From assembly GCF_018977255.1 (NCBI RefSeq), contig NW_024704742.1, positions 82,338,001 to 82,402,000 on the forward strand: 64,000 nt of DNA. The letters run 5' to 3'. Source of the DNA: Callorhinchus milii. Its lineage: Eukaryota. The position numbers and the translations under genes were made by a program. Each line of letters starts with the position of its first letter. Position 1 is the first letter of the stretch. The notes under the pieces were generated by a model. It was not told where the DNA came from. It made no database searches and saw nothing but the letters and a program-made list of their open reading frames with translations. Positions 2,700-61,605 of this stretch are shown one piece after another.

Positions 2700-3058
2700 A
2701 AATAATAATAATCCTTGCATTTGATATAGTGCCTTATCAAGTCTCGAGGCATCTCAAAGTGCTTCACAGAATATACTGTAAAGTGAATTGACTGTATATT
2801 TTCTGGGGGAAACGTGGCAGCCAATTGTGCACAGCAGTGTCCCAGACAATCGTGGATTGAGTGACTAAATATTTTTTAAGGGATTATTACCCCTGAACAA
2901 GGAAGTTTAATGCCTAATTTGAAGGATGGCACCTTCAACAATGCAGAGAACCTCTATCACTATATTGAAATATCAATATGAGTTCAATGGCTCATCATGG
3001 GGCTTGAATCCATGATTTTCTGACTCAGAGAGTGCTAGCAACTGAGCCAGGCTGACAC
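2700..3058 (-). mobile_element. DeuSINE-type SINE (degenerate, possibly with a nested SINE tail)
   Basis: Reverse strand has a tRNA-like head (gtcagcctggctcagttgctagcactc...gagtcagaaaatcatggattcaagccc) and the (TTA)n tail at about 2700. Confidence 0.65.
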
Positions 3059-4559
3059 CTTGCTCTGCTGTGATCATTCAGGATGTGGCCAGTGTGGAGT
3101 TCCCGCCAATTGGCGTGATGCACATTTTTTTGCAAAATCTTGCATTTTGAACATGTAAGTGCATAAAGTATTTAAAATTTCCCACAGACAATAATCACCG
3201 AGCTTAACAGTTTTGCATTTGCATTGAAGCCCTTTTGAGACATTTGGCAAGGCACTACAAATATGCAAATATATTATTTCTAACTTACTTTTCTGGCACT
3301 GAAGTGGAAGTGAAGTTTCAGTCGGGTTTCTATGAAATCAACTGAACAAAACAAAATATCCTCAAGGGGATATGCTGCTTGTATGCTGTTAATGTTATTA
3401 AGAATCAAGGGACATACTCTCTTTTGTTAATCAGTTTCTCTATTTATTCACACGGAGTCTCTCCTAAAATACTCATCACCCTGAATGCCAAGTTCACACC
3501 ATTTTTATGTTATGCTCATGTGTCAGTCAAGTGCCTTAACCACACCTATTATTACTGATGTAAACAGAGAAGTGCTTCAATATCCACACTTACTTTTCAA
3601 CCATAACTTTATTACCGGGTGAACAATGTGGTGGAAAATATTGTGTAAATGTAATCCTGTCATTCCCTGGAATTAAGGATATACCTTAGATCACCAAAGT
3701 ACCAGATGGTTTTCTAAAATCCTTGCTCCCCCCAACTCGTGCCATCCTGTGACGTGATCCTGGCTGTGTTGGAACAGAATGGAGCGGATGTGTGAGAGAG
3801 ACACCTCAGAATATGTGTGAGCTCTGATTCAGGAACACAGAACTATTTTGAGAGTGGCAAATGGTTGTGGGAAGCAGAAGAGATTTGTTAGCTCCTCAAC
3901 AATGCAAATATCTGGGTGCTGACAGTGCAGTGTCAGTCAAACTAAGTAATTTACTTTGACTGACATTTCAGTCCGGTAACTTTAGTTTTAACACTGGCAA
4001 CATCTTGAGAATCATTTGTACCTTCTATTGCTTGTCTTTCTGTTGGGCCATTTTATGTAATCCAAAAAGTGCCTGTTTCAAATTTCAGTAAATGATCAGA
4101 ATATACAGCATAATTTAAGTTCCTTGATCTCTGTACTATGTAGCACACTTTGTGTCAATGCCAAAGCAGGTAAAAAAAAATTATAAATAATAATCCTTGT
4201 TTTTTTTCATTTGTATATGTGGATATATGGTCATGACCAGGAATGAGGTTTTGACTTCATGCCTGTAAAATTAACTTTGAATGATTCAGAGGAAATGTAA
4301 ATCAAATGAGTGACAATTTCTTGGGAAGTGTATATTAGACAGGAGGCAGAATTCCAGACATTTCACCTATGGCATTTATATAGCTGCTATGACTCAAGTT
4401 GCTCCTAGCCTTGCTGGAATCTTAACTCTCCTGGAACACTCCCCAGCTCATCAATGCAGATCCTGAGAAAACTAGGTTAGAAATGTGTACAGAATTTTGT
4501 TATACAGAGAAATCTATACACAGGCTTGTCTAGGTTCAATAAAAATCAGTAAACATTGC

Positions 4560-4835
4560 TATGTTTCCTTACTCTGCACCCCTCTATTCACCTAGCAGTA
4601 AGTAGGAATCCGGTTGTTAGTCGATTGGCGGATTGCTTTTCCTGGGATAAAAATCCCTTCCAAAAAAAATTAATAGCTTGGTCACTTCATCCACAACTGT
4701 TTGTGGGACACTGCTGTGCACAATGGCTTCTGCATTTCGCCCACAAAACGTACAATCAATTCACTTCACAGTATACTCTGTGAAGCGCTTTAAGACATCT
4801 AGAAGACATGATAAGGCGCTATATATTACTATTAT
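4560..4835 (+). mobile_element. Headless copy of the tRNA-Ala SINE (long subfamily)
   Basis: Contains cctagcagtaagtaggaatccggttgttagtcgattggcgg and the shared body and tail, as in 55025-55388. Confidence 0.75.
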
Positions 4836-5897
4836 ACTCATCTGTGTTTGGTATGATTTTCAATCCAACACAAAAAACAGAAACTTGCATTTATGCATCT
4901 CCTTTCATGTTGGATAACATCTTAGTGCAGTTTATAGTGGCAGGATTGGATGCTGAGCAAGGGAGATGAAGGAGAGGGAGGTGACCATAGGCGCCGTCTG
5001 AGTCACAAGATCGGTCTGAATGAAGAAGGCCAAACTCAACTAGGTTTAGAAATCGATTTAAATATTAATAGAGATGGGGCAAGGTAGAGGGATAGTGGCA
5101 GGGAGTTCTGGAGGTTAGAGGCATAGTGACTGAAAACTCGGCCACTGATTGTGGTACGGGGAACGAAGGGCATACAATATGCCTGCGTTAACTAAGTGGG
5201 AGAGGGGGGCAGAGGAGTGGGATACAAGCAATAAACTTGTGTCCCACAATTTAAAATCATTTTTTTGTAATTCCAGAAGGCTAAGGCGAGAAAAAAATGG
5301 ATTAAAAGTCAGTAAAAATTAAAACAAAATTAGCAACCATGTCATCCGACAAAAGTCAGAATGAATAAAAATGGATTTCCATTTCCAGCCCTATCTGTAC
5401 ATGTAATTGTAATTAAATTAATTAAATGTAATTGGTGGCCTCATTTCTCCCACAAACTACAGTCAATTCACATTACAGTATATTCTGTGAAGAACTTTGA
5501 GACGTCTGAAAGACGCTATATCAAATCCAAGGATGATTATCATTATTACATGGTAGATCTGCGGAAAATGTCACATGTTGTACAGGGTGCAAGAAGAGAG
5601 GACAGTGCATACTTGATCCTGCCCATGCTCATATTATTCAAGAGGAATAAAATAGATCCAGCATTGACTTGGCAGCACTGAAGCCAGTCTGCTCATCACT
5701 TCTCATGTTTGGTTGATTGATGCTCCACATGATCCATATTATTGTCCAAATTAACAGGTAGCATTTGGTTCAAGGTTCTGTGACAACAGAATCTGGCTGG
5801 AGGAAACCATTTACTGCATAGAATTCTGGATCAAACTTTCAATGGTTCCTCCTGCCTTTTTGACTGTCACCTTTTCACTCACCGTCTTTCTGAAGTA

Positions 5898-6240
5898 CAA
5901 CAACAACAACATGTATTACTATTTTTTTAAACCCCTATGTTGAGGCACAGATCAGCCATGATCTAATTGAATGGCAGAACAGGCTCGAGGAGCTGAATGG
6001 CCTTCTCTTGTTCCTATGTTCCTATATAGCGTCCTTCACACAGGATAACATCTAAGCGCGGTACAGTGGCAGGGTTGGATGCCGAGCAAGAATGAAGGGG
6101 AGGGGGAGGTGGTCATAAGTTCAGTTGAAAAGGTAGGTCTTAAGGTGGAAATTAAAAATGGAAAAAGAAGGAGTGAGGTGGAGGGATTGAGGCGAGGAGT
6201 TCCAAAGTTTAGAGGCATAGTGGCTGAAGGCATGTGAAGC
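5898..6240 (-). mobile_element. L2 3' end carrying a nested plus-strand CR1 3' tail (about 5930-6023)
   Basis: The (CAA)n tail at 5898 is separated from atatagcgtccttcac by gatcagccatgatc...ggctcgaggagctgaatggcct...ttcctatgttcct. The minus-strand ORF shows the L2 C-terminal motif AFSHYASKLWNS. Confidence 0.7.
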
Positions 6241-6577
6241 AAAATAAAATAAGATTCTTTCTAACAGACTGAGAATTGTATAGAACAACACAACTCTCTC
6301 CTCACGCAGCTGCCACATTTCCCAGCAATTATATTCCACATGAGCCTTCACCCCTTCTAATCCTTGCTTATGTCCTCTGTTCCCTTCTCCCTCATGTTTG
6401 TATCAAGTTTCCTCTTAAATGTCTTGATGCTTTCTGGTTTCTACTTCTTCTTGCCAGTCAGCTCTGCAACCTTGTGGAGCTGGCTGGTGAGGAATGAAGA
6501 TCCACTGTCACTGGTTGCTCTCTGGTATCCTGTCCAAAGTGACCATACATTCATACTTGCACCTTGACAGTGAGTAA

Positions 6578-7122
6578 TTTTTTTTTGGACACCCATCAGT
6601 ATGCAAAAGAGTATCCAAACCAAATTGAGATTTCCATGCATCCTACCTACACATTGAAATGTCAGACATAGCTTGTTGGAATGGAAAGCGCACTCTCTCC
6701 CTAGAGGCACGCTTCCTGCTTACCTAATTCCTGAAAGTATTAGGCGCAAATTGGCAAGAGCCAAGGATTGCGGACACCCAGAGTGTGTGTTGGGGTAGAA
6801 TCTAACCAGCAAAAACCTCATAACTTGCCATTGATATTGCTGTCCGGCAAGCTTTCCCGACGCTTGTCCAGGAAGGACAATCCTACCCGGTAGGGCTTTG
6901 GCTTGCAGAGTTAACAGGAACTGAGTGAGATGACTCCCTGCCCCCAGTGGTTGGCCTACCCTTGCAAGTCCCGAATAACTGCCGGGATCAGAAAATGGAC
7001 TACCAGGATTGTCACAGAGGGCTGGTTCGATTCCTACATTCCATCAGGTATGTCACCTTGGAACCAGTTGAGCTCCAAGGAGACACCGCTTACCTACCCC
7101 TTCCCCAAGGAGAATAGTCACA
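6578..7122 (-). repeat. Unclassified structured A-tailed repeat ('family U'), near full-length copy A
   Basis: Collinear with 14851-15474 and 59297-59903 (gtatccaaacc, cactctctccct, cccagagtgtgtgttgggg, gttaacagg, ggttcgattcc, tgtcaccttgga). Strand is assigned from the A-rich end. Confidence 0.85.
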
Positions 7123-10230: not shown

Positions 10231-10414
10231 AACTGTCTTTCGTAGGCAGAAGCAGCAACAGTAGCAGCAACAGCAAGAAAGAATTACATTTATACAGCGC
10301 CTTTCACATCAGGAGGATGTTCCGAAGTGTAACGGTTGTATTCGCACAGCCAAAGCCCACAGACAGCCTTAAAGTGAATTATCAATTAATCTGAAGGATT
10401 GTCTGCCAGGCCTC

Positions 10415-10590
10415 TGGGAGACACTTCCAGATACAGGGATTTCCATGTGTAGGTGACATACATATCTGTAACTATTAGCTGGATTTGGATACTCTTAAGC
10501 ATAGAGCTTCTACGAAGCTACTGGTAGGATTTGTTTATCTGCATCTGACGGGTTTCTGCACATGTCAGACATGTCGCTGACCAAAACAAA
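10415..10590 (+). repeat. Family U, 5'-truncated copy
   Basis: gatttccatgtgtaggtg...ggatactcttaagcat...gggtttctgcacatgtcagacatgtcgctgaccaaaacaaa. Confidence 0.7.
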
Positions 10591-13750: not shown

Positions 13751-14224
13751 TTATGTGTTGTGAAGAACAGGAGTTTGGGATTATTTTTGGCCTCCAGGAG
13801 GCCTGGGAGTAGGTGGGGTTTGGGCTTGAGCGAGAGAGAGGAAATGTATAAACAGATATTGTATCTAATTCTCTCACATGAATTTAGCATGAATTTAAAT
13901 ACAATTTACTCCCACTGCTTTTCCTGCATGTCTCATCTATGTACTGGTATTCAACACTCTGGGTAATGTAATTAATTGTGAACTGTTTGTTCACCTCTCT
14001 CTGAACTCGAGTTGTTAACACCCTCGTTGTGGATTATCACTCATGTTCAACATGTCATTAGGCGTCAGATTATCTGTTAATCTTTTGTCTTCTGTTATCT
14101 TGAATTCTATAATAACATTTCCCCTGAACTCTCTTTCTCCATTCTGAACATTCCCAGCTTCTCTTCATAATTCAGGTGCCTAATTCAATTCTAACTATCA
14201 ATTTAGTTGCCCTTCACTTCTGAC

Positions 14225-14480
14225 AATAGCTGGAAGCTGCAAGACAGCATTTGTATAGCACACTGCACAGTTTAGCTGGTTAAACTCCAGCAGAACCCTA
14301 ACACACACTCTGGGGTTCCCCAGGCTCGACCCTTGTGAACATATCCCTTATACTTTCTCAGATTAGGTGACACACCTGCTCACCTGATTTCCATATGTGG
14401 GTGGCATGCTCATGTGGAACTGTCATTCTGGGTTGGATACTGTTAAACATGTGTGTCAAGCCCTCGACTGACTAAAAAAA
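14225..14480 (+). repeat. Family U, 5'-truncated copy
   Basis: tttagctggttaaactccag...acacacactctgggg...ggttggatac...gactgactaaaaaaa. Confidence 0.72.
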
Positions 14481-14850
14481 TCCTTGGATCTGTACTCCAG
14501 CGTACACTTTATCCCTTTTATTCCTATAAATTAATCTTACACACTCTCCCCTCTGTAAAAGCACGATGAGTCTCTCCTTGAATTCTGTGTCCCTTTGTGC
14601 GTCATTATTTCTGCATTCCAAAGTCTTCGCTGCAACAGATGTCAGGTTCGCTGAAGTGTAGTTGCTTGGGTTATCTTTTTTCCATTTTTAAATAGGTGTC
14701 AAGTTTCCTGTTCTCCAGGCTCTGGCACCACTATTTGTTTTTTCAGTGAGTGCCTGAACATGCCTTGCCAGAACAAGTACCTTTTTGCGCTCTTGAATGA
14801 GGCCTCATGCCTACTTTGGGAAGATAAGTCTATGTTTACTTTTGAAGTAA

Positions 14851-15474
14851 TTTTGTTTGGTCAGCCGGACGCATAACCCCATTACCTGGTTGAAGTATAT
14901 TCAAACCAGACTGAAAGTTCAACATACATATGCTTCTTATATAAATTTCCCTGTGTCTCAAATGGAATGTGTGCTCTGTCTGTGGAGGGGCGCATGCTGC
15001 TTACCTAATCCTGATATGTAACGGGCACAAGTTCATGAAAGCCAAGGCTTGGGCCCCAGAGTGTGAGTTCGGGTACTGCTGGAATCTAACTAGCTAAAAC
15101 CGCATAGCTTGCCATGATATTGCTATCTGCAAGCTTTCCCACTGCTTGTCCACCTAGGACTATCCTGCCTAGCAGGGCTTTGGCTTGCAGTGTTAACAGG
15201 AGTTGAGTGGGAGGAATCCCTGTGCTAACGGCTGGTCTGCCCTTCCGAGTCCTCCCAATGAGCCAGGCTGGCTGTGGTGTGATCAGCAATGCCTTGGAAT
15301 ATTGTGGAGACGGCGGGCTCAGGAACCGGACTACTGCGACCGCTACAAAGGTGCCGATTCCGACATTCCAATGCCAGGCATGTCACCTTGTAGCCAGTTC
15401 AGCTTCAAGGAGACTTCGCTAACTCCACCCCCCCACCAACCTCCGCCCCCAGGAGGATAGTCATTAGTTGGTCA
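14851..15474 (-). repeat. Family U, full-length copy B (about 624 bp)
   Basis: Both ends are present: sense 5' tgaccaactaatgactatcct and sense 3' ccggctgaccaaacaaaa. Confidence 0.85.
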
Positions 15475-15960
15475 TTCAATATCCGATAAGCGTGGGTTTG
15501 AGCCCCCACTAGGTGGATGGTAGGTACCAAGAACTCCTGCCCTGCGAGCTTCCCGCTGGGCAACACATCTCAGCATGAATTGCATGAGAGCATTGTCACG
15601 ATCTTTCTGTCTGCAGCTCGGGCACCAATACCTGTCCTGGGTAAGATGAAATGTGTTCATTAGGAAGTGCAACCCATTCAGTGCTGGAAATATTTAAACA
15701 CTACCTGCAAAGCTTAGTTCATCCTAACGGAAAGCTGCCAGGGGGAATAATTGGCGTACTATATTGAATTTCTTTTAGAGAATCACTCAGTTGAGTTTGA
15801 TGAATTCTAACAAATACCTTGTAACGTCAGATTTTTTTTCTCACTTGTTTCTAAAGCAAAAAATTGCTGGCTTAATAAGGCAGTGTTTGCCTTTATTTAG
15901 AATAGTCCCAAGAGTCTGTAACTGTACGAGGCAATAAATACTGAGTGCTGCAAAATGCGG

Positions 15961-21539: not shown

Positions 21540-23040
21540 AACAACAACAACAACTTGGATTTATATAGCGCCCTCCACGTTGGACGACGTCTCAGAGCAC
21601 TTCACAGTAACGGATCCCGGGCCCGAGCCAGGGGGAGGGGGAGGAAGGTGACCAAAGGCGCGGTCGAAAAGAAAGGACTTCAGCAGAGACCTGAAAATAA
21701 GAAGGGAGGGAGCGAGGCAAAGGGAGTGAGGAAGGGAATTCCAGAGCCTCGGGGCATAGTGGCTGAAGGCACGGCCACTAAGGGTGGAGCGGAGGACTCG
21801 GGGGCGAGGAGGAGGCCAGACCCGGAGGAACGAAGGCAACGGGTACTGTTTTGAGGAGAGAGGAGGTCAGAGAGGTAGGGGAGTGCAGAGGAGTGCAGGG
21901 ACTTGAATACAAGGGTGAGGATCTTGAAATCGATTCTCTCTGGGACAGGCAGCCAGTGCAGTCTGGCAAGGACTAGGGCAATCGGGGAAAGGAGTTTTGT
22001 ATGAGTGAGAATGCGGGCGGCAAAGTTTTGAATAATTTGGATTTTATGGACGGTAGTGGATGGGAGACCGGCGAGGAGGGCGTTAGAGTAGTCCAGCCGA
22101 GAGGTGACAAAGGCATAGACCAGGGTTTCAGCGGCTTTTCGGGAGAGGTATTGACGGAGATGGGCAGTTGGTCGGAGGTGAAACAAAGCGGTGCTGGTGA
22201 GGGACCGGATGCGGGGGACGAAGGATAATTCAAACCTGATGCCTAGGTTGCGTACAGGTTCAGGGAGTTTTAGGGGGAGGTCGGGTAGGTGGAGGAGGTG
22301 AGAGCCGTGAGATTTTAGACGTTGACGAGAGCCAAAGAGTATGGCTTCCGTCTTGTCAACGTTCAGCTGAAGGAAGTTTGCGCTCATCCAGCCCCTAAGA
22401 TCTGACAGGCAGGCTGACAGAACATCAAGGGACTGGAGGTCGCAAAGAGAGGTGGAAAAATAGAGTTGGGTGTCATCTGCATACCCCATGTCTGTGGATG
22501 ACATCCCCAAGAGGAAGCATGTAGATCAGAAAGAGGAGGGGGCCAAGGATGGATCCTTGGTGTAGCCAGCAGGTGACTGGGTGAGAGTGGGAGGAGAAGC
22601 TGTTTGTGCAGATGTACTGCTGGTGGTTTGTGAGGTAGGACTTGAACCAGGCAAATGCGGTCTCACTGAGGTGGATGACAAAGGAATGGCGGTGGAGGAG
22701 GATGGCGTGATCGACTGTGTCGAAAGCGGCGGAGAGGTCCAGGAGGACAAGGAGGCAGAGGGAGCCCTGGTCACAGATAGAGAGGATGTCACTTGTGACT
22801 TTCACAAGCGCAGTGTCTGTACTGTGGGCAGAGCGGAAACCGGACTGGACGGAGTGGGAGGAGAGGTGTGCGCGAAGTTGGTTGGGAACAACGCATTCTA
22901 GAACTTTTGCGAGGAAGGACAGGTTAGAAATGGGGCGGTAATGGCTGGGATTTGAGGGATCTAGAGAAGGTTTTTTCAGTGGGGGGGTGGGGGGTGATGA
23001 CAGCAGTTTTGAGGGAGGCAGGGACTGATCTGGAGGAGAA
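21540..23040 (-). mobile_element. 5'-truncated L2 LINE with frameshifted RT domain (about 1.5 kb)
   Basis: ORF 22473-23081 (YRPISNLSFLAKVLE, QSGFRSAHST, LLDLSAAFDTVDH, QGSILGPLLF) and ORF 21680-22510 (YADDTQLY, SRLDYSNALL, LHWLPV); (TTG)n tail; candidate TSD aaaaagaac at 21531 and 23041. Confidence 0.96.
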
Positions 23041-23094
23041 AAAAAGAACCTCTTGATTGGTGGAGCGTTATATACGTGCAAGTTGTTGTTGTAT

Positions 23095-23400
23095 TGTCAG
23101 TGGTGCTGTCCTTTGGATGAGGCATTAAATTGAAGTCCTATCTGCCTGTACAGGTGGATGTCAAAGTTGATCCCACAATGCTACACCTGGTGTGCTGGCC
23201 AACTATTTCCTCATTCACTTCATGGCTGTTTGTGGACATTGATGTGTGCAAGTTGGCTGTTGCGATTGCCTCCAGTGACTACTTTTTACGATAAATCCTG
23301 TGAAGCACTTTGAGACTTCCTCCTGATGTAATGTGAAAGACACCATACTAAATGCAAGAATTAGTTATTATTATTTTTATTATTATCATTATTATTATTA
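23095..23400 (+). mobile_element. DeuSINE fragment (core to tail)
   Basis: gtgctgtcctttggatgaggcattaaattgaagtcctatctgcctgtacaggtggatg...(TTA)n. Confidence 0.75.
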
Positions 23401-24094
23401 TAGACTTGGCCCTGTTCCCCAACTCTAAATCTAAATAGATTTGGAATATCCTGGTGATTTTGCTGAGTTAGGGAGTGAAAAAACAATCAGCGAGAATCTT
23501 GATCTTGATAACTGACCAGGAACCCTGCTGGAATGTTTGGACAGAAGATGACAAGATCAGGCTGGACTCTAATGCTCCCCGATGTTGAATTGATGAGGTT
23601 TGGCACCGCAAAGCATATTACTTACAGCACTGAACTCTTTCTTGGCTACATTTCTAACAGGAATTACCCAGCAGATTCTAGTTGTATCCTCTGAGGACAA
23701 GATCACCTCTAAGATGATGGCTCGTGTTATGTTATGACTACGTTGCGGGAGTCCTGGAAGTAGGGCATTGCCAGACTAGAAAACTTTGAATAGTGGCAGA
23801 AAAAATAAATATACCAATGTAAGTTGACCAAAGGAAAACATTTTTAATTTTATTTTTCAGTGAATTTATGCTCATTTTTGCTAGCCTTTTAAGAATGCTG
23901 ATTCAATTTTAGTGTTCATGTTGTGTTCAACATTTTTAATTTAAGTGATTGCATTGAAAGGTATGAGTTTAACAGACAAAAGGATTTATGTTTTAGATCC
24001 AATCAGGGACAGGGTTGGGCAGCCCTACCGAGACTAGGAGATCAACATTTATTTGAGAATAAAATTCAAAAAGTACATATATGGGAAAGGGAGT

Positions 24095-24250
24095 GGGACA
24101 TTCCGGATGGTGCAATGACTGAACAGGTTGAATTTTCACATCCAAGACCTAGATTTGAATCTAGTTTAGACTAATGGGATGAAAAGTCCCATGTAGAGTG
24201 GGTTTAGATAAATATTAAGCTCATAGTTCAGTCTGACGTTCCAGTGGTCT
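24095..24250 (+). mobile_element. Possible LF-SINE-related ancient SINE fragment
   Basis: ttttcacatccaagacctagatttgaatctagtttagactaatgggatgaaaagtc...ttcagtctgacgttccagtgg resembles the LF-SINE consensus as I recall it (ctttcacctctaggtcactggttcaaatccagccc...tcagtccagttcctagtgg). Confidence 0.4.
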
Positions 24251-24369
24251 CCTGAGGATCTTTACTTTGTTGATAATGAATGACATCCATGGGAATGAAA
24301 GATTAAGCGCTCTGGGATGCTACCCTACGTGAGGGATGCTATATAAATGCAGGTTGTTGTTGTAAACTC

Positions 24370-24590
24370 AAACTCTTTCTACCTGTTAGGGTGGATGTTA
24401 AAGATCCAACGGCACGATTAGAAAGAGAAGGAAGTTTCTTTTAATGACCTGACCAACAATCCTTCTCGTTAAAAAAAGGTAATATGTTTAATGGGTGTTT
24501 GTCAGACTTTGATGTGCACAAATTTGGCTGTCACGTTTGCATCCGGTCACTACACTTGACAGTAATTACCTGTGAAAGGCTTTGAGACAT
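24370..24590 (+). mobile_element. DeuSINE fragment
   Basis: ggtggatgttaaagatccaacggcac...tgtgcacaaatttggctg...ggctttgagacat. Confidence 0.7.
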
Positions 24591-24596
24591 TTTATA

Positions 24597-25043
24597 ATGA
24601 TAATAATAAAAAATAATAATCTTTGCATTTGATAAAGCGCCTTATTATGTTTTTGAGCCATCTCAAAACACTTAACAGGATTTCACTGTGAAGCATGGTG
24701 ACTGCCTTTTGGAAGTGGACCCAGCAGCCAATTTGTGCACAGCAATATCCTTCAAACAGCCATGGAGTGAATGACAAGTTTTATTTGGGGATTGTTGGCC
24801 AGGACACTGGGAGAAGCTCTCTTTCCTTTTCAAATGGTGTCATGGGTCTCTTTAATATCCATCTGAAAAGGTAGACGGGACCTCAGTTTAACATCTCATC
24901 CAAACAATAACACCTCTGACAATGTAATGCTCCTCTGGGACTGCTACACTCTGTCAGCATAGACTGAGACTTCAAAGTCCCAATTGAACCCACAACGTTC
25001 TCACTCAGAGGTGAGAGTTCTACCAACTAAGCCAGGTTGACGT
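24597..25043 (-). mobile_element. Near full-length DeuSINE-type SINE
   Basis: Reverse strand shows a tRNA-like head gtcaacctggcttagttggtagaactctcacctctgagtgagaacgttgtgggttcaa, a Deu core (gatgagatgttaaactgaggtcccgtc) and an L2-like tail. Confidence 0.85.
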
Positions 25044-25440
25044 TATAGGAGCTACATGACAGGTTGTTATTATTCGATGATCTACTCAATGCAATGACAC
25101 ACTGATGATTGGTTTCCTTTCCAAATGTATTGGAAGACGAATCTGTGAATATTATCAAAATCAAAGGATGTGAATGAGTAGAGGACGTGAAATAAATTAC
25201 AAATGTGTGATTCAATATTCACCATTGGTTTCCGGTTATGTTGAAACTTCTGTGAATAAAGTAACGTTTTCAGCTTAGGTAGGATATTCAATAAATATTC
25301 AGTTAAATAATGAATGTATCACTAATTAATCCTGAAGTTTCCTATATTGAAAAATCCGTCATTAATATCCTCTATTGGATGAACTTTTAGCACATCTGTA
25401 TAAATGAAACAGATTTTAAATAAATATAAATAAAACAAGC

Positions 25441-25703
25441 AGTTTTAGCTGGTTGGACTCCAGCATTGTCCTCAATGCATATTCTCGGGTCCCCAAGCTT
25501 TGGCTCTCAATAAACTGCACCTAATGCTCACCAAAATTAGATAAGCAGAGTTGGGTTCCACCAGGGAGAAAATGCACATTATGTTCGAAACTCTGGGAAA
25601 TTTTGATATGTTGATGGAATACACATGTAGAACTCTCTCTGGCTTGGATTCTCTTAATGATGGGTTTCCACAAGTGTCAGGCACCCAATTGACTCCCAAA
25701 AAA
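25441..25703 (+). repeat. Family U, 5'-truncated copy
   Basis: gttttagctggttggactccagc...ccccaagctttggctct...gggtttccacaagtgtcaggcacccaattgactcccaaaaaa. Confidence 0.78.
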
Positions 25704-26404
25704 GCATTAATGTCAGGGTACATGGATGCCATTTAATATTTCAAGGGTTACATTTTATCAACTTTATTCTAAACCTCCTAGAAACGCAGGGTATCTTTTG
25801 GATACAGTATGTCTGTCTGCTCAATACTGGATCTTAAATAATGAAATAATAAATAAATGCCTCTAACATTAATACCCTCTTACTATAGGTGGCGAACTGA
25901 TTAGAAATTATACGGTTTTACTTGCAATAGGAAATATTTTTTTTCAGGTTCCCCTAAATACACACACATTTTTATTTTGTTTGCCGAATGGCTGTCCATA
26001 ATATTGTTGAATTGTAAATAAATTGACATATTGGAAGCTAATTTACAGTATTTCTTAACTGCGTTCCTTAACTTTCTTGAGTTGCCAAATGGCAACTGCT
26101 TCCACTAAATGAACAGAATTCAGGCCAATCGGCAGGAAATCTCCTCTTACACAAACCTATTTGTAAAGCAGGTTTCTTGTAACTTTCCCTTAAGCCTTTA
26201 ATCTGGGCTCTCGTCAGGTCTACTTTCAGATCTTCACAACGTTGTTCACCTCTGCCACTCTTCACCCAAACCCTCATCCAAGTGTCACCTCCAGACTTTG
26301 CTTTCTCCAATTCACTGCTTTCCTCAGATCTTCTACGATGTTACTCCCCCAGTCATGCACTCCATCAACTCTGGTCCTCTTTCAGCCAAGCTTTCAGCCA
26401 TTTT

Positions 26405-26625
26405 TACCCAGCAGTAAGTAGGAACCCGGTTGTCGATTGGCGGATTGCTTTTCCGGGGGTAATAATCCGTTAAATAATGTCCCACAAACAATGCTTTGCA
26501 CAAATGGCTGCTGCGTTTTGCCCACAAAATATACAGTTAATTCACTTCACAGTGTATTCTGTGAAGCGCTTTGAGACATCTCAAAGACATGATAAAGCAC
26601 TATATCAAATGTAAAGATTATTATG
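26405..26625 (+). mobile_element. Headless tRNA-Ala SINE (long subfamily) following an L2 remnant
   Basis: cccagcagtaagtaggaacccggttgtcgattggcggattgc...tail. Confidence 0.7.
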
Positions 26626-27419
26626 TTTGTATTATCATTTTACCGCTGCCTTCAGGAACCCTCTCCCTAAATTCCTCCACCTCATCAATTCACTCTGCTT
26701 TAAAATTCTGTGACTCTGCCTTGGATATCTTGTCCCTATCCTCCCTACATTGCATTGATGCAGTGAATCAAGGTGAAAAGCACAATATAATTCCTATGTT
26801 TAACTACAGTGGATTAAAATTGGAAGCACCAATTTCAAAACCACATCAAGGTGGGTTCATGTTTGGATACTCTGGAGCAAGGTGAAGGAGTTTCTGCATA
26901 TTCTTTGCATCTCCCTCCTTGCTCAGCCTTATATCCTGCAAAGTGCTTTGAGATATCCTCTGAACGTGAAAGGCACTGTATTAAATACAAAGGATTATTA
27001 TTACTATTATTACTACTAATAATGAAGTGCTTTCACATGTTCTCCCTATGGTAAATACCACAGTCTGCTAACTTTCACAGCCAATCCTCATATATGTATA
27101 TTCATAAAAGCCACTTGGACGAGATACCAGAGTATGACAGGCAACCATAGAACTGCAACACATTCGAAGGAAAAAGTGAATCAGCTCCCCTGGAGAAGAG
27201 AAGGTGAGAACATTGGCAACTTGGGAAAAGTAATGTTCCAAAGGGCATAATAAATCACCCCACTGCCACCATGTGTGTGACTGGAAGAAAAAGAGGAAAA
27301 ATTAGTTTTAATGCTGTGGAAAGAGCGGCAACTCAGGCACATATATATGGGGTGGATGTCAGATGTCTCATGATATGAATATATGCATTAACCTGTGGAT
27401 TAAGAAAATGCCTTAGGAT

Positions 27420-27784
27420 GTTATCCCAACATGAAATCCAATTTGTTCTTGTCAACAAGACCAAGGCCCTCCTGGTTGGCTCCCATCAGCACCTCCACAC
27501 CTCAGGTGCTGACAGGATCAACATCCAAGGATGCACAATCTACCTTACTAAGCCAGTCCGGAACCTTTGTGTCTTGTTTGACCCTCAACTATCCTTTCTA
27601 CCCCACATCCGTGCTTTGACCCGCCTTGCCTTCCCCCACCTCCACAACATCGCCCGGCTTCACCACTGTCTCATACCACAGACTGCCAAAACCCTCATAC
27701 ACACATTCATATCATCAAGCTTGACTATGCAAACTTCTTGCTTGTTGGCCTTCCCAACTCCTTCCTCCATAGGCTGCAGATCAT
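27420..27784 (+). mobile_element. Old L2 ORF2 fragment
   Basis: ORF 27418-27798: NKTKALLVGS...VRNLCVLFDPQLSFLPHI...LHNIARL. Confidence 0.85.
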
Positions 27785-28088
27785 GGCTCAGTGGTTAGAG
27801 ACTCGCCTTGCAAAAGAGAGACCTGGGTTTGATTCCCGGCAGGGCAAAACCATGTGCAAGTTTCCTTACTCCAAATGCCTGACAATAATCCCTCAAGAAA
27901 AAAATCATAAAAAATAGGTCACTTCAATCCACGACTGTTTGTGGGACACTGCTGTGCGCAATTGGCTGCCACGTTTCCCCTACAAATATACAGTCAATTC
28001 ACTTTACAGTATATTCTGTGAACCGCTTTGCGACGTCTAGAAGATGTGAAAAGCGCTATATCAAATGCAAGGAATATTATTATTATTA
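27785..28088 (+). mobile_element. tRNA-Ala SINE, short subfamily
   Basis: ggctcagtggttagagactcgccttgcaaaagagagacctgggtttgattccc...tail with gacgtctagaagatgtgaaaagcgct. Confidence 0.9.
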
Positions 28089-30304
28089 ATATTGTAAAGA
28101 GTCATATATGTGCAAATTGTTGTTGTCGGGAATTCTATGTGGGGCGGCTTATTTAGGAGCACTGTTAAGAAGTACAACATATGACCTTATACTTATATCC
28201 TTCTTTCACAACACAATTTCTGTTTGATTTAATGCACAGTGAATCAATACTAAACACCTGCTATAATTCCTGTTTGTAACTGCAATTAATTAAATTTGGA
28301 AACACGATTCTAAATCCACCTCCAGGTGATGACTTTAGGACGGAGTTGACGTATTGGCTGCAATTTGTATGATTTATTGCAGCCTAATCTGCAACCGGTT
28401 AAACACTAAAATATGAACTTTTAAAATTACCTGAAGGAAGTCCTATATACTGTTCTTCTGGTTATAAATGTTTTGAGAGAATTAGTCACGCAGCCCTTTA
28501 ATAATTAAGAAGAGCGCTTTGCTTAGTGGCACAGTCTCTCTAGCCCTGGGCACATAAGATTACAGGGCAGGCACTTTAACATTGCAAATACGTCTACTGC
28601 AAGCTGCAAGTAGTCATATCACTTCTATATGAAACATTACTTGAACTCATATACAACGTATAATAACTCAATGTATCTTGTCTTTTTAAGCAAACAGGGA
28701 CACTACCCCACTTGAAGAACGCTATCAAAATGCAAGTTACTGTTGTTATTGTTTTTTAATGCCAAAGTACTTTTGCATTGTTGGTAGATTTGAAGCTGGA
28801 AACTTGATTTATACATGTCTACACTGAATCGCTCTGAAGACTTCTTTCCATGTGCTGAGCAGAACAGGGCAATAAAATGGGCCATCTGTGTGACGTAAGG
28901 AAGATTGATCCAAATTGCATTTGTGTCTTCCACTGCATCAGGACTTGATCTAATATTCTATCTGGGCTGACACCAAAGTACAGTGCAATGCTGGTGGGTG
29001 CTGCATTGACAGAAGTTTGCCTTTCAGTTAAGATATTAAACCTTGGTTCTGTCTGTCTGTTCAGGTGGATGTCAAAGATTCCAGGACACTATTACAAAGG
29101 AGAAAGGAGTTTCTTCTGGTATCCAGGATCTCTGTTCTCCCGAAGTTATTGTTCACCTCATGGTTGTTTGTGGCACAATGTTGGAGGGATAATTAACGCA
29201 GGAAGCACTTTGAGTCATTTTGAAGTGACAGCATTTACTAGCCATTGGCAATTTGATAAAATGAGTAACATTATAATGACAATAATTCTTACCCACAATA
29301 CTCGTGTGATTAAATGCATTATTTTGTAAGAGCTGACATATTAATTGAATAAATATTTTACGGAAGTACTTGATTCACATTACGATATAATTATACCAAC
29401 TTTATTCCTAGCACTGATGAATAAATCCTCAGTTTTGCATTATCCCCAAATTATATCTGTATAGTCGAAATTAGGTCGGATCAATGAACTGTGGCATATA
29501 ATTGCAGTTTTCCTTGTATGACAATTGTACGTAGTTTGGAGAAGTTCTGTTCAATGAGATTTTGCAAATTACCTTTAAAATATTTGTGAAACAAAACTTA
29601 TCACTTCAGATGGTAGATATTGACTAGCAAATCTACAGGAATGACATATAGCAAGCAACTTCAATCTTATTTAAGTGTCCACAGAAAAAACATAATGAAT
29701 CTTTAGCAGAAACATGGATCCTATAAACAATGGACAGGCGATCAAACAAAATTTTTAATAACTAAAATATCTTTGTGTCCCACTATGACCACTTGAAGAG
29801 AGCTCTAAGTAATGACTAAATAAAAGTATGTCGGTCTCTGAGGCAGTATGTGCTGAGTTAGCTATGGTTCCAGGTGAACTCTTGTCCTATCTGCTGTGGG
29901 ATGAATGCCCCAGTGTGTCCTAAAGGATAAGGCATGTGTACAAGCACACCATCTGCTCAGAGTTGGTGCCAAATTGTAACACCACAGATGGTAAACTTAC
30001 TTCAGGTAAATTATTTTAACCCTTTTAAATACTAATGTACCTCCTGCTTTCAAATGGATTGACTATGCAACATCTGTAAAGATAATTTTCAATCAATATT
30101 GAGACCAACACACTAAATACGGATCTTTCTCTTAACTTGCTCACTAAGTGAATGTTTAGCATTGTTCCTCTCCACACCAAGATGGTGGGCCAAATCGCCT
30201 TCTTTTGCACCGCAAACGGCCTGGGTCGCTACAACAAGAAGAACAAATTACATTTGTATAGCACCTTTCACATTGGGAGGACATCCCAAGGTGCCGGACA
30301 GTCA

Positions 30305-30430
30305 GTGATAATCTGTCTCGGGAATTTCATGTATAGGTGGGATGCATGGAATTCTCAGTTTGGTTTCGATACTCAAGCACGGTGGTGGATTTCCGCATGT
30401 GTCAGACATCCAGATGACAAAAAAAAACAT
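30305..30430 (+). repeat. Family U, 3'-terminal fragment
   Basis: ggaatttcatgtataggtgggatgcatgg...gatactcaagcacgg...ttccgcatgtgtcagacatccagatgacaaaaaaaaa. Confidence 0.78.
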
Positions 30431-31660: not shown

Positions 31661-31784
31661 TTTTACTATTAATTGTAACATATTTCTCCCCAATTTTTCC
31701 TAAATATATAAATAACATACAAATATTATTGAGTAAAACCATCTTTAAAGGCTAGTTGTACTTGGAAATTTCAGATAGGAATTC

Positions 31785-32000
31785 TACGCACTTGGCTCCT
31801 GTTAATACTGCAATTCAAAGTCCTACCTGATAGGATGGCCGTAGCATTGCTAAGATTGCCAATTAGTGATTGTGGTGGCAAGCCTTATGGTTTTGCTGGT
31901 CAAACACCAGCCATATGCAAATGCACAATCTGGGATCCCCAAATCCTGGCCCTTGAGCTTTTGCATGTGTTAGACATCCAGATGAATAAGAAAAAACACT
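31785..32000 (+). repeat. Family U, very degenerate copy
   Basis: cacttggctcctgttaatactgca...ggcaagccttatggttttgctggtc...gcatgtgttagacatccagatgaataagaaaaaa. Confidence 0.55.
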
Positions 32001-33320: not shown

Positions 33321-33332
33321 AAGTCCACAAGG

Positions 33333-38030: not shown

Positions 38031-38422
38031 TATAATGTAGAAATTTCCTGTCTGTGACTCTCAGCATAGAGGAGATTGCAATCACATTGCCTCTGTAGAG
38101 GGTGTGAGAATATCAGTGATAACTAAAGTATAATTATATGTGCAGCATATTACCGTGTCTGGTTGTAATTGCTGAATCTCTCATATACTGAATTATCATT
38201 CTCCCACACATTCATTTGAAAAATGAAGTATAATTGCAGAGTTCAAATTCTAAAAAATAGAATTCTGCAATTTTAGCCCAATTAATCCCAACCCCTCCCT
38301 ATTTTTACGTGTGTTCGTACAGTGAGTAGAATTACTTTTTGCATCTTCCAAAAAAGCTTGTTTTTTAAAGGGTTCCTGTTAAATACCATCCATCTCATGA
38401 GAACTCAAACCTGTGCTTGTTG

Positions 38423-38752
38423 ATAATAATAATAATAATAATAATCTTTGCATTTGATATAGCGCTTTTCACGTCGGGAGGACGTCCCAAAGCGCTTCAC
38501 AGAATATACTGTAAAGTGAATTGACTGTATATTTGTGGGCGAACGCGGCAGCCAATTGCGCACAGCAATGTCCCACAAACAGTCGTAGATTGAAAATTAC
38601 CAATTTATTATTGTTTATTGTTTTTTGGAGGGATTATTATTAGGAGTGTGGAGTAAGGAAACTTGCCCAAGGTTTCGCCCTCTGCCTGGAATTGAACTCA
38701 GGTCTCTCACTTGCAAAGCGAGTGCTCTAACCACTGAGCTACAGGACTCCAC
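38423..38752 (-). mobile_element. Young full-length tRNA-Ala SINE, short subfamily
   Basis: Nearly identical to 16003-16334 and 33009-33320. Confidence 0.95.
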
Positions 38753-38754
38753 GA

Positions 38755-39585
38755 CTATCAACTAGTGACTATCCTGCTTGGGTGAGGGGGGCTGGGGAGG
38801 GGAGGTGGGGTGGGGTGATGGTGGTACGCGGGGTCTCTTTGGAACTGAACTGACTCCAAGGTGACATGCTTGGCAACATAATGTCTGAATCAAGCTAACC
38901 CTCTGTGGTGGTCTCGGTAATCATTTTCCTTAACCAGACATTAATCCACGACACTGCAGATGACAGCCCAGCAGCCTGGCTCATCGGCAGGGCTTGGAAG
39001 GGCAGACCAATCAATTGGGCAGAGGGGTCCTACCAATCAGCTCCTGTTAACCCCACAAGTCTTGGAGATAGTGTGATGCTAGCTGGACAAGCAACGAAAA
39101 ATTTGCCGTACAGTGCTTGCAATGGCACATACATAGACTCCAGTAGTTCCCCAACACATACTCTGGGGCCCCAAGCCTTGGCTCTTGCCAACCTGCACCT
39201 AATGCTCCTGAATTAGGTAAGCAGGATGTGTCCCTTCAGGAAGACTGCATTCATTCCAATACACAGGATTTCACCCACAAAATACACAGAAAAAACACTT
39301 TACAGTACATGCTGTGAAGCGTTTTGAAAAGTCCTGACAATGTGATATTTGATATATTTATATCAAGTACAAGGATTGTTATTTTTCTATCCTCTGAAGC
39401 ACGTTGAGAGGTTCTCCTGAGATGAAACATAGTATATCAAATACAAGAATTATTATTGTTCAAGTCCAAGTCCAGAGGGGTCTGACGTTTTAAATTTTTC
39501 TTGTTCACTGATCAGTCAGTTTGGTTTGGATATTCTTAGGCCTGATGATGGGATTCCGCTCAACAAAAAAACCTAGCTGATCAAG
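38755..39585 (+). repeat. Family U, copy D (interrupted by SINE tails at about 39265-39500)
   Basis: 5' caactagtgactatcctgcttggg; ctcctgttaac; ctctggggccccaagccttggctcttgcc; resumes at tttggtttggatattcttagg...gctgatcaagagaaaa. Confidence 0.8.
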
Positions 39586-40741
39586 AGAAAAATCCTCCAC
39601 TTTCCTTCAACAACTCGTTATTCTGAACGAAGTCTGCGACTTGAACCGTTCCTTTCTCAGGGAATCTCATCTGATGTTTTTTGTGTCTCTCCTATCTTTC
39701 TCTCTTCGGTGGAAACCTACTTGCCTTTCTCCCTTTTATTGTACTTTTACAATCATTGCATCCCTAAACATTGCTCCCAAAACATGCTGACTCACATACT
39801 GTTTCCCTTCCCTGGTTCCTCACTATTTTGTAGATCAAAACTCATTGTCCCATCTTCCTAATCTAACTCAATTCAATCCCAGGACCCTCAATATTGTGGA
39901 ACTCAGTTTGCCTACAAAATAAATAGTAACTACGCTTTTCAGTATCTCCTGTGAAGTGGTTCGAAATGCTTTGAAAGATGCTGTATCAAATGTAAGAATT
40001 ATTATCAGCAGAACTTCCTCACTCTTCCCTTCCTCTTGTGATCCACAAGCAGTTAAAGCTTAAGCCTAATCTTCCTCAATCATGACTTTAATTTATCTTG
40101 TCCTCTATCATTTCAACATTTTTGGGACCCAACGTGATGGGTAATTTTCTTACCCCAAGGTTTCTCAATGAAAAGGTTGGAATCTTTCAAAATTTGCATG
40201 TTCTCAAGCAGAGAGAAGCCGTTCAGGTCTGAGCACTGGAAAAGCTCAATCTATGAAATATGACTATTCATGGCCAGCAACATTTGTTTTGCAGTAGGAG
40301 CTTTATCTCACTCCTGATCTTTTCATTCGTCAAATAGGTTCCTTGATGTAATGTTTTTTTATTTTATAGCACGTTTTTCATTCCTCTCCCACTGCATCAA
40401 CTGTCTCTAATGCCTCCCACCCACCCCCCGCACACACACACACACTGTTATGTAAAATGTAAAAGAAGTTTACCTTGTTAGCTGGAGTGTAGAAGACAGA
40501 TAACTGTATTGCAACATTTTGCACTCCCAATTCTCAGGTGCCTGACTTTGCAGTGAAGATCGAAATTGAAACCAGCAACAGAGGCTTTTTGTTCTCATTG
40601 CCCGAGGACTGTGACAGCATATTTCTCGCTAAATTAAGATTGTGGAAATTGCAGGTTTTATTTGTGCAGATATTCAGTAATTCAGAAACCCCATTTTAAT
40701 TTTCACCCCACAAATATATAGTTGCAATTCAGAGATCATTT

Positions 40742-50639: not shown

Positions 50640-50828
50640 AAATGTTTGAGGTGCTACATGGTAGGATGCATTCCTCCAGGGAGAGAGTGTGCATTCCATT
50701 CCGACAATCTATCTCTGGAATTTCCATGTGTAGTTGGGATACATGTAGGTGGGACACAGTTTGGCTACCCTTAAGCATGGTGATGGGCTTCTTCATGTGT
50801 CAAACACCTGTCTGACCCCCCAAAAAAT
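50640..50828 (+). repeat. Family U, 5'-truncated copy
   Basis: ctccagggagagagtgtgcattccattccgacaatc...catgtgtcaaacacctgtctgacccccaaaaaa. Confidence 0.8.
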
Positions 50829-51807
50829 GGTTGTCTTCCACACAAGGCTGGGATTCTTCTCACTTGGCTCCTGTTAGCCTTGTAGATTTACACATGAGCA
50901 GATCTTGTTCATGTTCTCTGTCTGCCATTTCTCTCTTGTTCTCAGGTAAATTGTTCCTCATATACCTTGTTCATGTCACCTCTCTCATATTTTGGATGAA
51001 AAATAGCAAAATATGTGCATTTGATATAGCACCTTGTTACGTCTTTGAGACGTCTCAAAGTGTTTCACAGAATAAAGTGAATGACTGAAGTACAAATAGT
51101 GCTTTACCAGAAGCCATTAGCTCTTTGGTAGGAATAAGATGTGGGTAATTTGAGAGAGCAATATTCTGTCTCTCCCCTATTGAGGGTTTAACCGAGCTCT
51201 GCAACTTTTGATGTGCAATTTGGATGTGACTATGAAATTGGCCAACAATCCTCTACCTAAAATTTGGTCATTTACTTTGTGGCTCTTTGTAGGTCATTGC
51301 TGTGCGCAAATTGGCCACTTTTGCTTTCTACAGTCACAACGCTTTACAGTAAAATCCGCCAAAGCAGATTTGAGTTGTCTTCCCAATGTAAAAGTTATTA
51401 TATCACATGCAAGAATTAGCATTACTATATTACAAGAAAGTTCTCATCTGTCTGACTCCCAGTTTAACAATAGAAATGGGCAACACTCAGTAACTAATGC
51501 AGTTAACAAGTCACATCAAGATACAGGGCCACTTAATTGGATATTCCAGGAATACTCAAGCTCTTGAGCTGTAATTAGCTGCAGTGGAGATAAATGGATT
51601 TTAAAATAGAGATACTTAAGACCACGAAGGTTCATAAAAATTTGTAGTCAGGTTAATGATCAGTATGTTAATACAGTTAGAGATCACACACTGGTCCCAG
51701 TGGAGACAGAATTGCAGCAGTTTAACAAGAATTTTGCTGCAGGTATGAAAGTATTACAGGATTTATAGAGTCATAGAATATAGATCCATCTCTGGTGATC
51801 TATATTC

Positions 51808-59296: not shown

Positions 59297-59903
59297 TTTT
59301 GGTCAGCCGGGTGTCTGACACCTGCGGAAACCCATCATCATGCTTAAGAGTATCCAAACCAAGCAGAGATTTCCATGCATCCCACGTACACATGGAATTT
59401 CCAGAGACAGATTGTTGGAATGGAATGCGCACTCTCTCCCTGGAGGGACACTTCTTGCTTACCAATTCCAGAAAGTATTAGGCGCAGGTTAGCAAGAGCC
59501 AAGGTTTGGGGACCCCAGAGTGCGTGTTGGGGTACTACTGGAGTCTAACCAGCTAAAACTGCACAGCTTGTCATCTGGCAAGCTGTCCAGCTGCTTGTCC
59601 AGCTAGGACCACACTCTCTGTAAGGCGGCGGGCAAGGTTAACAGGAGCTGAGTGCTAGGATTCCCTGCCTCCATTGACTGGACTGCCCTTCCAGATCCTG
59701 CTGATGTGCCAGGCTAGCTATGCTGTCATCAGCAGTGCCCTGGAATACCGAGGATCTACCTGGCACAGAAACCAGGCTACTGAGACCGCCACAGAGGGCT
59801 GGTTCGATTCCATCATCCTTTTGCTAAATATGTCACCTTGGAGCCAGTTCAGCTCCAAGAAGATCCCACGTATGACCATTACACAAAAAGAGAATAGACC
59901 AGT
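59297..59903 (-). repeat. Family U, copy C
   Basis: ttttggtcagccgggtgtctgac...ggttcgattcc...ccttggagccagttcagctccaag; the far end is cut by the Penelope-like insertion. Confidence 0.88.
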
Positions 59904-60264
59904 AGCAAAAACAGAAGTCGCTGGGAACATTCAGCAGGTCAGGCAGCATCTATGGAGAAAAAAAAGTGAGTCAGCGTTTTGGGTCCATGACCCTTTGTCA
60001 GAAATGGGGCATTTTGGGAGTGAGAAGCTTTTAGGGGCTAAGAGAGAGGGGGGAGGCAGGGCAAGGGGATTTGCTCTGCCTATTTTGTTGCATTTGCCCT
60101 TAAAAGTCTCTCCCTCCCAACATGTTCCAGTTCTGACAAAGGGTCATGGACCCGAAACTTTGACTCACTATCCTTTCTCCATAGATGCTGCCTGACCTGC
60201 TGAGTGCTCCCAGCAACTTCTGTTTTTGTTTCAAATTTCCAGCATCTGCAGTGTTTTGCGTTTT
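59904..60264 (+). mobile_element. Mini Penelope-like element (inverted pLTR pair) with two decayed minimal hammerhead ribozymes
   Basis: Inverted arms at about 59906-60038 and 60096-60228; HHR-like ctgacaaagggtcatggacccgaaac at 60133; flanking direct repeat gagaatagaccagt / gaggatagaccagt (13/14). Confidence 0.8.
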
Positions 60265-60664
60265 GAGGATAGACCAGTGTTCTACTCAACAATCAACAGA
60301 AGAATTGGTTATTCTTCAGTCTTGAGAGAAGGTGAAAGGGCCTTCTTCATCAAAACTAATCTTGTTAACTTGTTTCCTTGTTGTCATGTCAAGAATGTCA
60401 AGGACCTTCCTCAAATTGATTTTTTTATAAACCTATATAATGCTTCCACCCTTTTTGGAAACAAAAACACAATTCATTTGAATCATTTTAATTAACCTTC
60501 AAGGAGTTAGTATTCAATAGGAAACATCAGCCTGCAGATTAGCCTAAATCCTCTCTCCTCACATTCTGGTTCTCTCTCCAAACTCATTATCTCTCTCTCC
60601 ACTACAATATCTCCCTGCTTGCAATCTCCAACTAAACCTATCTGTCCACTTGTTGAATGTCTGA

Positions 60665-61605
60665 TGACCAACTTGTGACTATCCTTTATGGGGTGGGGGT
60701 GGGGTTGAAGGTGGACTCCTTGGGACTGAACTGGCCCAAGGTGATGTGTCTGGTAATAGAATATTGGAATTGAATTGATCCTCTATGGTGTTCTTGATAG
60801 TCTAGTTCCTGAGCCAGGGTCTACAGTCTGCAGTACTTGTGGAGTCCTGTAGTTCAGTGGTTAGAGCCCTCGCCTCGCACGTGAGAGACCTGGGTTCGAT
60901 TCTGGGTAGGGTGAAACCTTGGGCAACTTTCATTACTCCACACGTCTGATAATAATCCCTCAAGAAAACAAAACAATAATAAATTGGTCACTTCAGTCCA
61001 AGACTGTTTGGGGACATTGCTGTGTGCCATTGCTGCTGCGTTTTGCCCACAAATATACAGTCAATTCACTTTACAGTATATTCTGTGAAGCGCTTTGAGA
61101 CATCTAGAAGATGTGAAAAGCGCTATATCAAATGTAAGGATTATTATTATTATTATTACTCCAGGACATGGCCAATGAAGGGATCAGTTAGCGTGGGTCA
61201 TTTGCAAGACTTGGAGCAGCAGACAAGTTACTGAGCGAGAGGATTTGTCGTATTTAGCTCCTGTTAACCTACAACAAAAAGCCCTAATGGATAGGGTGAT
61301 CCTAGTTTGAAAAGCAGCAGAAAGCGTGTCAGACAGTTTTTGCAATGACAAGCTGTACAGTTTGAGCTGATTAGACTCCAACAGTACCCCAACACACGTG
61401 TGCTGGAGACCCCAAGCCTTGTCTTTCAGAATTCGGTAAGCAGGGTGCATGGCCCCAGGGAGAGAGTGTGTATTCCATTTCAAACACAAGGACATTTCCA
61501 AGTGTAGGTGACATATATATGTGGAACTCTCAGTCTGGTTTGGATATTCTTCAGCATGGTGTTGTGTGTGAATCTGTCAGACTTCTGGATGACCAAAAAA
61601 AAAGA
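60665..61605 (+). repeat. Family U, copy E split by a SINE
   Basis: 5' tgaccaacttgtgactatcct at 60665; resumes at about 61158; ends gtcagacttctggatgaccaaaaaaaaa. Confidence 0.82.
60839..61158 (+). mobile_element. tRNA-Ala SINE, short subfamily
   Basis: gtggagtcctgtagttcagtggttagagccctcgcctcgcacgtgagagacctgggttcgattc...(TTA)n. Confidence 0.93.

Follow-up and report, generated by a model that had tools for sequence, protein, structure and literature searches.

Copies of an abundant A-tailed repeat family in Callorhinchus milii DNA are probably the truncated ends of an old LINE

Nature of the repeat

The A-tailed repeats in the analysed DNA (a stretch of 64,000 nucleotides, hereafter the window) are best read as the dead remains of an old and very abundant LINE with a poly(A) tail, each inserted as a 5'-truncated copy, a reading to which we give a probability of roughly 80%. 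The recurrent unit of ~620 nt is likely the 3' UTR of that LINE, behind an ORF2 that likely ends in a CCHC knuckle. This view of the unit follows from the absence of a fixed 5' end combined with the continuation of two copies (A and E, below) into a knuckle or an in-frame stop. The initial annotation had instead proposed a non-autonomous retroposon of ~620 bp or a retrocopied structured RNA; this is not supported, since there is no fixed 5' end and a likely coding end lies upstream. It had also invoked a partner LINE not seen in the window. The 620 nt are most likely the 3' UTR of that LINE itself. In the window, no reverse transcriptase or endonuclease sequence was linked to any of the copies, none of them long enough to hold a reverse transcriptase domain.

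Copies in the window and abundance

The window is repeat-dense animal DNA (41% GC). It contains reverse transcriptase fragments of L2-like and CR1-like type. Using Rfam and ARAGORN, we also identified tRNA-Ala-headed SINEs, which match the C. milii SINEs described in the available text of PMC5499810, the comparison being by description only. The 11 copies of the A-tailed family are named A (14851), B (6578), C (59297), D (38755), E (60665), F (10415), G (14225), H (25441), I (30305), J (31785) and K (50640). Self-BLAST of the window and a profile search showed that all 11 are related and that their coordinates and strands had been given correctly. With copy A as the sole BLAST query, 7 of the 10 others were recovered (B, C, D, E, G, H and J; E from 1e-64 to 2e-4), and the window self-BLAST joined copies F, I and K to E or C at 81-85% identity. 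All 11 were retrieved by a profile of these same copies, a result that is partly circular, and the profile added a piece of 39 nt just after copy K (E 7e-4); the best E in the control, comprising one reversed and four shuffled windows, was 0.41.

The five long copies (A-E) share 65-77% pairwise identity, and all copies differ by 14.5-26.8% from their own in-window majority, a figure that is an underestimate. Together the family occupies 4,499 of the 64,000 bases, or 7% of the window. In sequencing run X1, 7,025 contigs matched a 1.3-kb stretch around copy A at ≥80% identity, only 40 of them at ≥99%; thousands of copies are therefore a floor, and the family is real and very abundant. Contig depth along the UTR changes more than tenfold and tracks the local divergence of copy A, so it does not measure copy number. 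Three runs that we guessed to be RNA gave the same depth profile as a DNA-like run; these are contigs, and they are uninformative on a source transcript.

Copy A, the longest (14851..15625, minus strand, its upstream limit set by a contig depth edge), comprises a likely ORF2 end, the 3' UTR and an A tail. Copy C (59297..60285, minus) is nearest to the in-window majority, and a younger insertion at 59904-60264 interrupts it towards its 5' end. Copy D, taken whole with its nested inserts, spans 38372..39593 (plus): an ORF end at 38372-38421, a nested SINE at 38422-38752 and, after it, UTR interrupted by another insert at about 39263-39506. Copy E (60641..61605, plus) starts about 28 nt before the stop codon and holds a nested tRNA-Ala SINE at ~60835-61158. 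Copies C and E face each other head to head with about 350 bases between them; they are 69% identical and probably represent independent insertions.

The short copies are all on the plus strand. Self-BLAST and the profile delimited four 3' fragments: F (10413..10590, with a 41-nt insertion), G (14223..14480, with two internal deletions), H (25439..25703) and I (30305..30430). Copy K (50649..50828), delimited by the profile, is also a 3' fragment. Copy J (31769..32000) starts in the middle of the UTR and matches profile positions 251-447 and then 611-654, the gap being an internal deletion of ~165 nt. Short copies had been described as lacking 5' sequence only, which stands except for J and, with its two smaller deletions, G. 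The piece after copy K (50844..50882, plus; profile E 7e-4), absent from the initial annotation, is a short internal part of the family that begins 15 bases past the tail of copy K. It shares a variant with copy J, and the two start at nearly the same profile position (251-254), which may mark a second cluster of breaks.

Anchored 3' ends and staggered 5' ends

With endpoints entered by hand from the alignments and from contig depth, the 3' ends of the 11 window copies have a standard deviation of 8 nt, compared with 242 nt for the 5' ends. The common A-tailed 3' end noted earlier is thus borne out, and short, decayed A-runs follow it. One copy had been said to lack the terminal hairpin; this is true of copy B (6578..7122, minus, delimited by the profile), which is without its last ~25 nt.

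The "defined 5' end" of the long copies, on the other hand, proved to be wrong, as their starts are staggered and multi-copy depth runs ~150 nt further. Relative to the start assigned in the initial annotation, the copies begin at about -151 (A), -58 (D), -28 (E), -20 (C) and +9 (B); the start of copy D lies beyond its nested SINE, and that of copy C lies beyond its nested insertion. In run X1, summed depth was 6,273, 3,498 and 2,686 in three bins of 15492-15623 and dropped to 37.7 in the bin 15624-15667, with 7.5-10.7 in the flanks. Runs X7, X6 and X12 show an edge of the same shape. This edge places the start of copy A near 15625, ~150 nt upstream of the earlier one. Among the contig pieces listed, 6 of 32 belong to paralogous contigs that end at 15621-15625 and carry 9-559 further letters unlike the window; these letters beyond 15625 may be unique flanks rather than more of the element.

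Part of the additional sequence recurs within the window. Positions 15534-15488 of copy A align with 38372-38418 of copy D (72% identity, E 0.003), so that, behind its nested SINE, copy D has ~50 nt in register with the upstream sequence of copy A. Compared within the window, the five long copies have upstream flanks with nothing in common beyond this collinear ORF end.

Target-site duplications were not significant overall (3 of 11 copies with p<0.07; combined p 0.22). The candidates are an 11-bp repeat in copy B (9/11 matches, p 0.018) and a 9-bp repeat in copy K (8/9 matches, p 0.027), for both of which the junction was placed after the repeat had been seen, and one in copy J (p 0.066); the other 8 copies gave p ≥0.18.

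Four of the five long copies start between -58 and +9, just past a G-rich tract. Such a concentration would also be expected if the copies descended from a non-autonomous derivative of the LINE, either UTR-only or short and internally deleted, that was copied in trans and so began mostly near the stop codon. The depth profile lends this idea some weight, with 22,000-37,000 in well-matched UTR bins against 2,700-6,300 in the ORF-end bins, as do two 3' sub-types in the copy alignment; bipartite non-autonomous LINEs are known in RTE, Ingi, Vingi and R2, according to the available portion of PMC5786205. However, the 5' ends are spread over 160 nt with no common head, the family is without a sense-strand Pol III box pair, a hammerhead core or an Rfam ribozyme, and the depth contrast is not one of copy count, since UTR depth varies more than tenfold with the divergence of copy A. 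We therefore consider such a derivative unlikely.

An open frame upstream of the probable UTR

The supposed 5' end coincides with a TGA stop codon at 15472..15474 (minus). The earlier statement that the family has no ORF holds within the 620 nt and fails upstream of them, where translation reveals a 50-codon open frame (15475..15624, minus) that ends at this TGA and is likely the C-terminus of ORF2. From 15624, the frame of copy A starts with the pattern C-x2-C-x10-Q-x4-C. The majority letter at 15580 among paralogous contigs turns the Gln codon of copy A into His (depth 4532 of 4734, or 96%, from 101 contigs in X1), and runs X7 and X6 agree on His at this position among the variants listed (40 of 168); from this majority, the family carries a CCHC pattern. 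In copy E, a tandem TGA TGA occurs in the same frame and at the same place as the stop of copy A. Copy D is open in the frame of copy A for 16 codons, after which the frame is shifted by a small deletion where the SINE inserted.

The knuckle pattern was written after the motif had been seen, and with that limit its loose form occurred in 2.3% of random 150-mers of the window and its strict form, with His, in 0 of 20,000; an open frame of 50 codons occurred in 22%. Differences between copies A and D fall 4/7/3 by codon position over 16 codons, with no third-position bias, which fits dead copies and is uninformative. The knuckle spacing known in LINEs is x7-8, and the x10 of this family is longer. 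Tx1, Vingi, RTEX and Nimb elements have a knuckle at the end of ORF2. L1 ORF2 likewise has a C-terminal CCHC knuckle, as described in the available text of PMC3821027. Judged from its sequence, the frame at 15475-15624 likely encodes an ORF2 C-terminus with a CCHC zinc knuckle.

Peptides of 50-73 aa from the frame had no relative in Pfam, in two word-index searches or in the ESM Atlas, and metagenome scans with the DNA motif and with the peptide were empty. Against PDB, the best matches were ZNF593 (E 0.05) and RecR (E 0.06), both of which we rejected as chance; the cysteines of ZNF593 are not aligned, and it scores like RecR. Among 1.84 billion representative proteins, the single match (P0001) is an artefact, rejected as a relative since the protein is a ~40-fold tandem repeat of which no stretch passes alone. 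The peptide is a weak query: it has 50 residues, is decayed and, in copy A, is missing its own His.

A contig covering 15488-15621 in run X7 (depth 349; a run guessed to be RNA), seen also in X6, carries ~300 more letters upstream. This contig may represent either a copy of greater length or one embedded in a host transcript.

The probable 3' UTR, its tail and the search for a head

In copy A, the non-coding segment of ~620 nt, likely the 3' UTR, occupies 14859..15471 (minus) and contains several hairpins. A G-rich tract of variable length marks its start (15425..15450, minus), about 25-50 nt into the UTR; G runs are present in four of the five long copies and mostly missing in copy C. At the other end, a terminal 5-bp hairpin (14860..14877, minus), decayed in copy A, stands directly before the decayed A tail (14851..14858, minus).

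No A(A/T)TAAA polyadenylation signal was found in the long copies. This absence bears on a reading in which the family is the processed 3' end of one host mRNA, made of its last codons, 3' UTR and poly-A. An ORF end followed by a stop, a UTR and an A tail would suit such an origin, and the marginal PDB match to ZNF593 (E 0.05) could be cited for it. Thousands of contigs match the family, however, which makes up 7% of the window, and a conserved host protein would have been expected among the 1.84 billion representatives, where none was found. Together with the missing signal, these observations make a host mRNA highly improbable.

The earlier finding that the family has no tRNA, 5S or 7SL head was confirmed, as Rfam gave no match inside the family. 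The Rfam check covered the whole window at the gathering score and, with E up to 10, the regions 59200-61700 and 14200-15550; in these regions only the tRNA heads of SINEs were found, the remaining matches being far below the gathering score. Neither ARAGORN nor a profile made from the SINE heads of the window detected anything on the long copies. On the sense strand a Pol III A box is absent, and the sole B-box-like word, with 1 mismatch, lies mid-element in copy C only. No hammerhead core occurs on the sense strand, and Rfam returned no hammerhead or other ribozyme; one copy has one antisense match to the hammerhead pattern. A long-range inverted repeat of 13-15 bp, enclosing 210-244 nt, is kept in copies B (6798-6810 with 7021-7033) and C (59539-59553 with 59798-59812), and one of its arms is a perfect B box on the antisense strand. 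We considered this antisense word as a remnant of a tRNA-like head in B and C and rejected it, as the SINE-head profile is blank there and the word is an arm of the inverted repeat.

No terminal inverted repeat pair was found in the three copies scanned (A, B and C), in agreement with the initial annotation. Helitron2 or Helentron elements are defined by a T-run, a terminal hairpin, a far end that varies and asymmetric subterminal inverted repeats. Read on the opposite strand, the copies open with a T-run and a short hairpin, and 8 of the 11 are without a clear target duplication, so that a non-autonomous DNA element of this type read backwards, or else a solo LTR, comes into consideration. 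The terminal motif lacks an inverted partner in the three scanned copies, though, the knuckle and stop set a polarity towards the A tail, and a run of A at the end of every copy would not be expected of LTR elements; we give these two origins hardly any credence.

Folding of the UTR was compared with shuffled sequences. Copy C reached z -3.2 and the in-window majority z -2.8, the latter equally on both strands, whereas six other copy segments ranged from z -1.2 to +0.8; among the local controls, L2 reached z -2.5 and SINE z -3.8. For the 3' half, RNAalifold predicted 4 pairs, those of the terminal hairpin, each present in 7 of 8 sequences and with no compensatory change. Seven helices of copy C persist elsewhere above slid controls (e.g., 23/27 compared with ≤16/27, and 37/49 compared with ≤27/49), but this persistence is no more than expected from common ancestry. 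Double changes preserved pairing in 8 of 30 cases for the helices of copy C and in 4 of 8 for the majority. In copy A, a long-range helix joining the ORF end to the UTR was rejected because it depends on letters that differ from the majority. The ancestral UTR likely had hairpins; a strong conserved structure is not established by these pairing tests.

These data also bear on the origin favoured in the initial annotation, in which the family is a headless retroposon that arose from some structured RNA of the cell. The missing head and the z scores of copy C and of the majority agree with it. The multi-copy unit nevertheless extends into a knuckle-like frame with a common stop, no Rfam family matches, the other six segments fold no better than z -1.2, the L2 and SINE controls fold comparably, the majority folds equally on both strands, and pairing is kept in only 8 of the 30 double changes. 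A structured RNA is thus a very unlikely source, and the family is better explained as the remains of a LINE.

Proposed mechanism

The copies are 3'-anchored, 5'-staggered and A-tailed, which supports the earlier proposal of target-primed reverse transcription. Following established LINE biology, their course would have been retrotransposition in cis by this route with early termination: working at a nick, the endonuclease and reverse transcriptase of the LINE itself would have used the A tail for priming and proceeded from there towards the 5' end. Most synthesis would have stopped early, often within ~60 nt of the stop codon, past the G-rich tract, and such a pile-up of stops near the stop codon would mimic a defined 5' end. 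The G-rich tract is a candidate stall site for reverse transcription, and by analogy with human L1 a stall there is a plausible cause of the apparent 5' end. According to the available text of PMC10830416, human L1 ORF2p acting on its own 3' UTR in vitro gave shortened products unless the G-quadruplex-forming first 78 nt were removed, and the short products matched the length obtained after the 78-nt removal. The 5' ends clustered past the G-rich tract of the present family echo these short products (PMC10830416, same portion), and its thousands of genomic copies would amount to a natural record of the stall sites of a LINE reverse transcriptase.

After insertion, the copies would have decayed neutrally, to about 15-27% from the in-window majority, and later SINEs and other elements would have inserted into them. 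The family predates the SINEs found inside D and E as well as the insertion carried by C. At the rate for C. milii SINEs given in the available text of PMC5499810, the divergence would correspond, as a very rough figure, to an age of 130-270 million years; another rate in the same text gives far older dates.

A further step can be envisaged, in which UTR-only copies, released by a barrier of G-rich sequence backed by a hairpin where the UTR begins, founded a headless non-autonomous family able to propagate itself. Host read-through would supply its transcripts, and the terminal hairpin and A tail would allow their capture in trans. We regard this scenario as speculative and improbable. If the UTR-only copies were a lineage of their own, they would represent a route to a non-autonomous retroposon without a promoter-bearing head; the resulting family would be SINE-like, would have neither a Pol III head nor a LINE 5' end and would make up several percent of a cartilaginous-fish genome. 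If the copies are instead truncated LINE insertions, as we favour, the consequence is one of annotation: a LINE covering 7% of the window is seen almost only as its UTR, and automated repeat libraries may label the family "unknown."

Comparison with known elements

Truncated L1, the described model, resembles the family in its 3'-anchored copies, A tail and staggered 5' ends. According to the available texts, L1 also has a Cys/His knuckle near the ORF end (PMC3821027), to which the putative knuckle here would correspond, and a 3' UTR that opens with a G-rich tract (PMC10830416), as does the one here. Unlike the human L1, for which the UTR template in the available part of PMC10830416 measures 231 nt, the family has a UTR of ~620 nt; this UTR lacks AATAAA, is balanced in GC and has a short hairpin at its end, and the putative knuckle has x10 spacing. 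Candidate clades for the LINE are L1, Tx1, Vingi, RTEX and Nimb, and no sequence homology to any named LINE was found.

Bipartite non-autonomous LINEs (RIME, NARTc, the Vingi-1_EE derivatives, Bov-A and the R2 SIDEs) are likewise short, non-coding, LINE-derived and A-tailed and have no small-RNA head. As far as the available portion of PMC5786205 describes them, they usually keep the 5' end of the LINE as a fixed head, whereas the long copies here begin at five different points with no common head. The holocephalan tRNA-Ala SINEs with L2 tails (the CmiSINEs SINE2-1_CM and SINE2-1B_CM, and SacSINE1-CM), as presented in the available text of PMC5499810, differ from the family, which is without a tRNA head and has another tail; it is the tRNA-Ala-headed SINEs of the window, two of them nested in copies D and E, that we liken to these SINEs, by description only (PMC5499810). 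Penelope-like elements and retrozymes, which are marked by a hammerhead core and pseudo-LTRs arranged in tandem, also differ, as the family has no hammerhead core on the sense strand. Our literature search found no description of the family, which is weak evidence because repeat families mostly appear in Repbase or Dfam, and the family may already be catalogued there.

Other features of the window

The insertion that splits copy C (59904-60264) has inverted arms of 136 nt that are 87% complementary, and it is flanked by a 14-bp target duplication. Its make-up is reminiscent of the Penelope-derived repeats known from cartilaginous fish; Rfam identified no hammerhead within it.

A 345-bp inverted duplication (33333-33677 and 33837-34181) is 99.7% identical between its arms and very young. 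Its spacer of ~160 bp contains short TTCAA-type repeats, and the duplication adjoins a young SINE at 33008-33320. A Pro/Ser-rich open frame of 119 codons (61934-62293) holds a 39-bp tandem repeat (3.1 copies, 62019-62136) and is possibly an exon or a GC-rich minisatellite.
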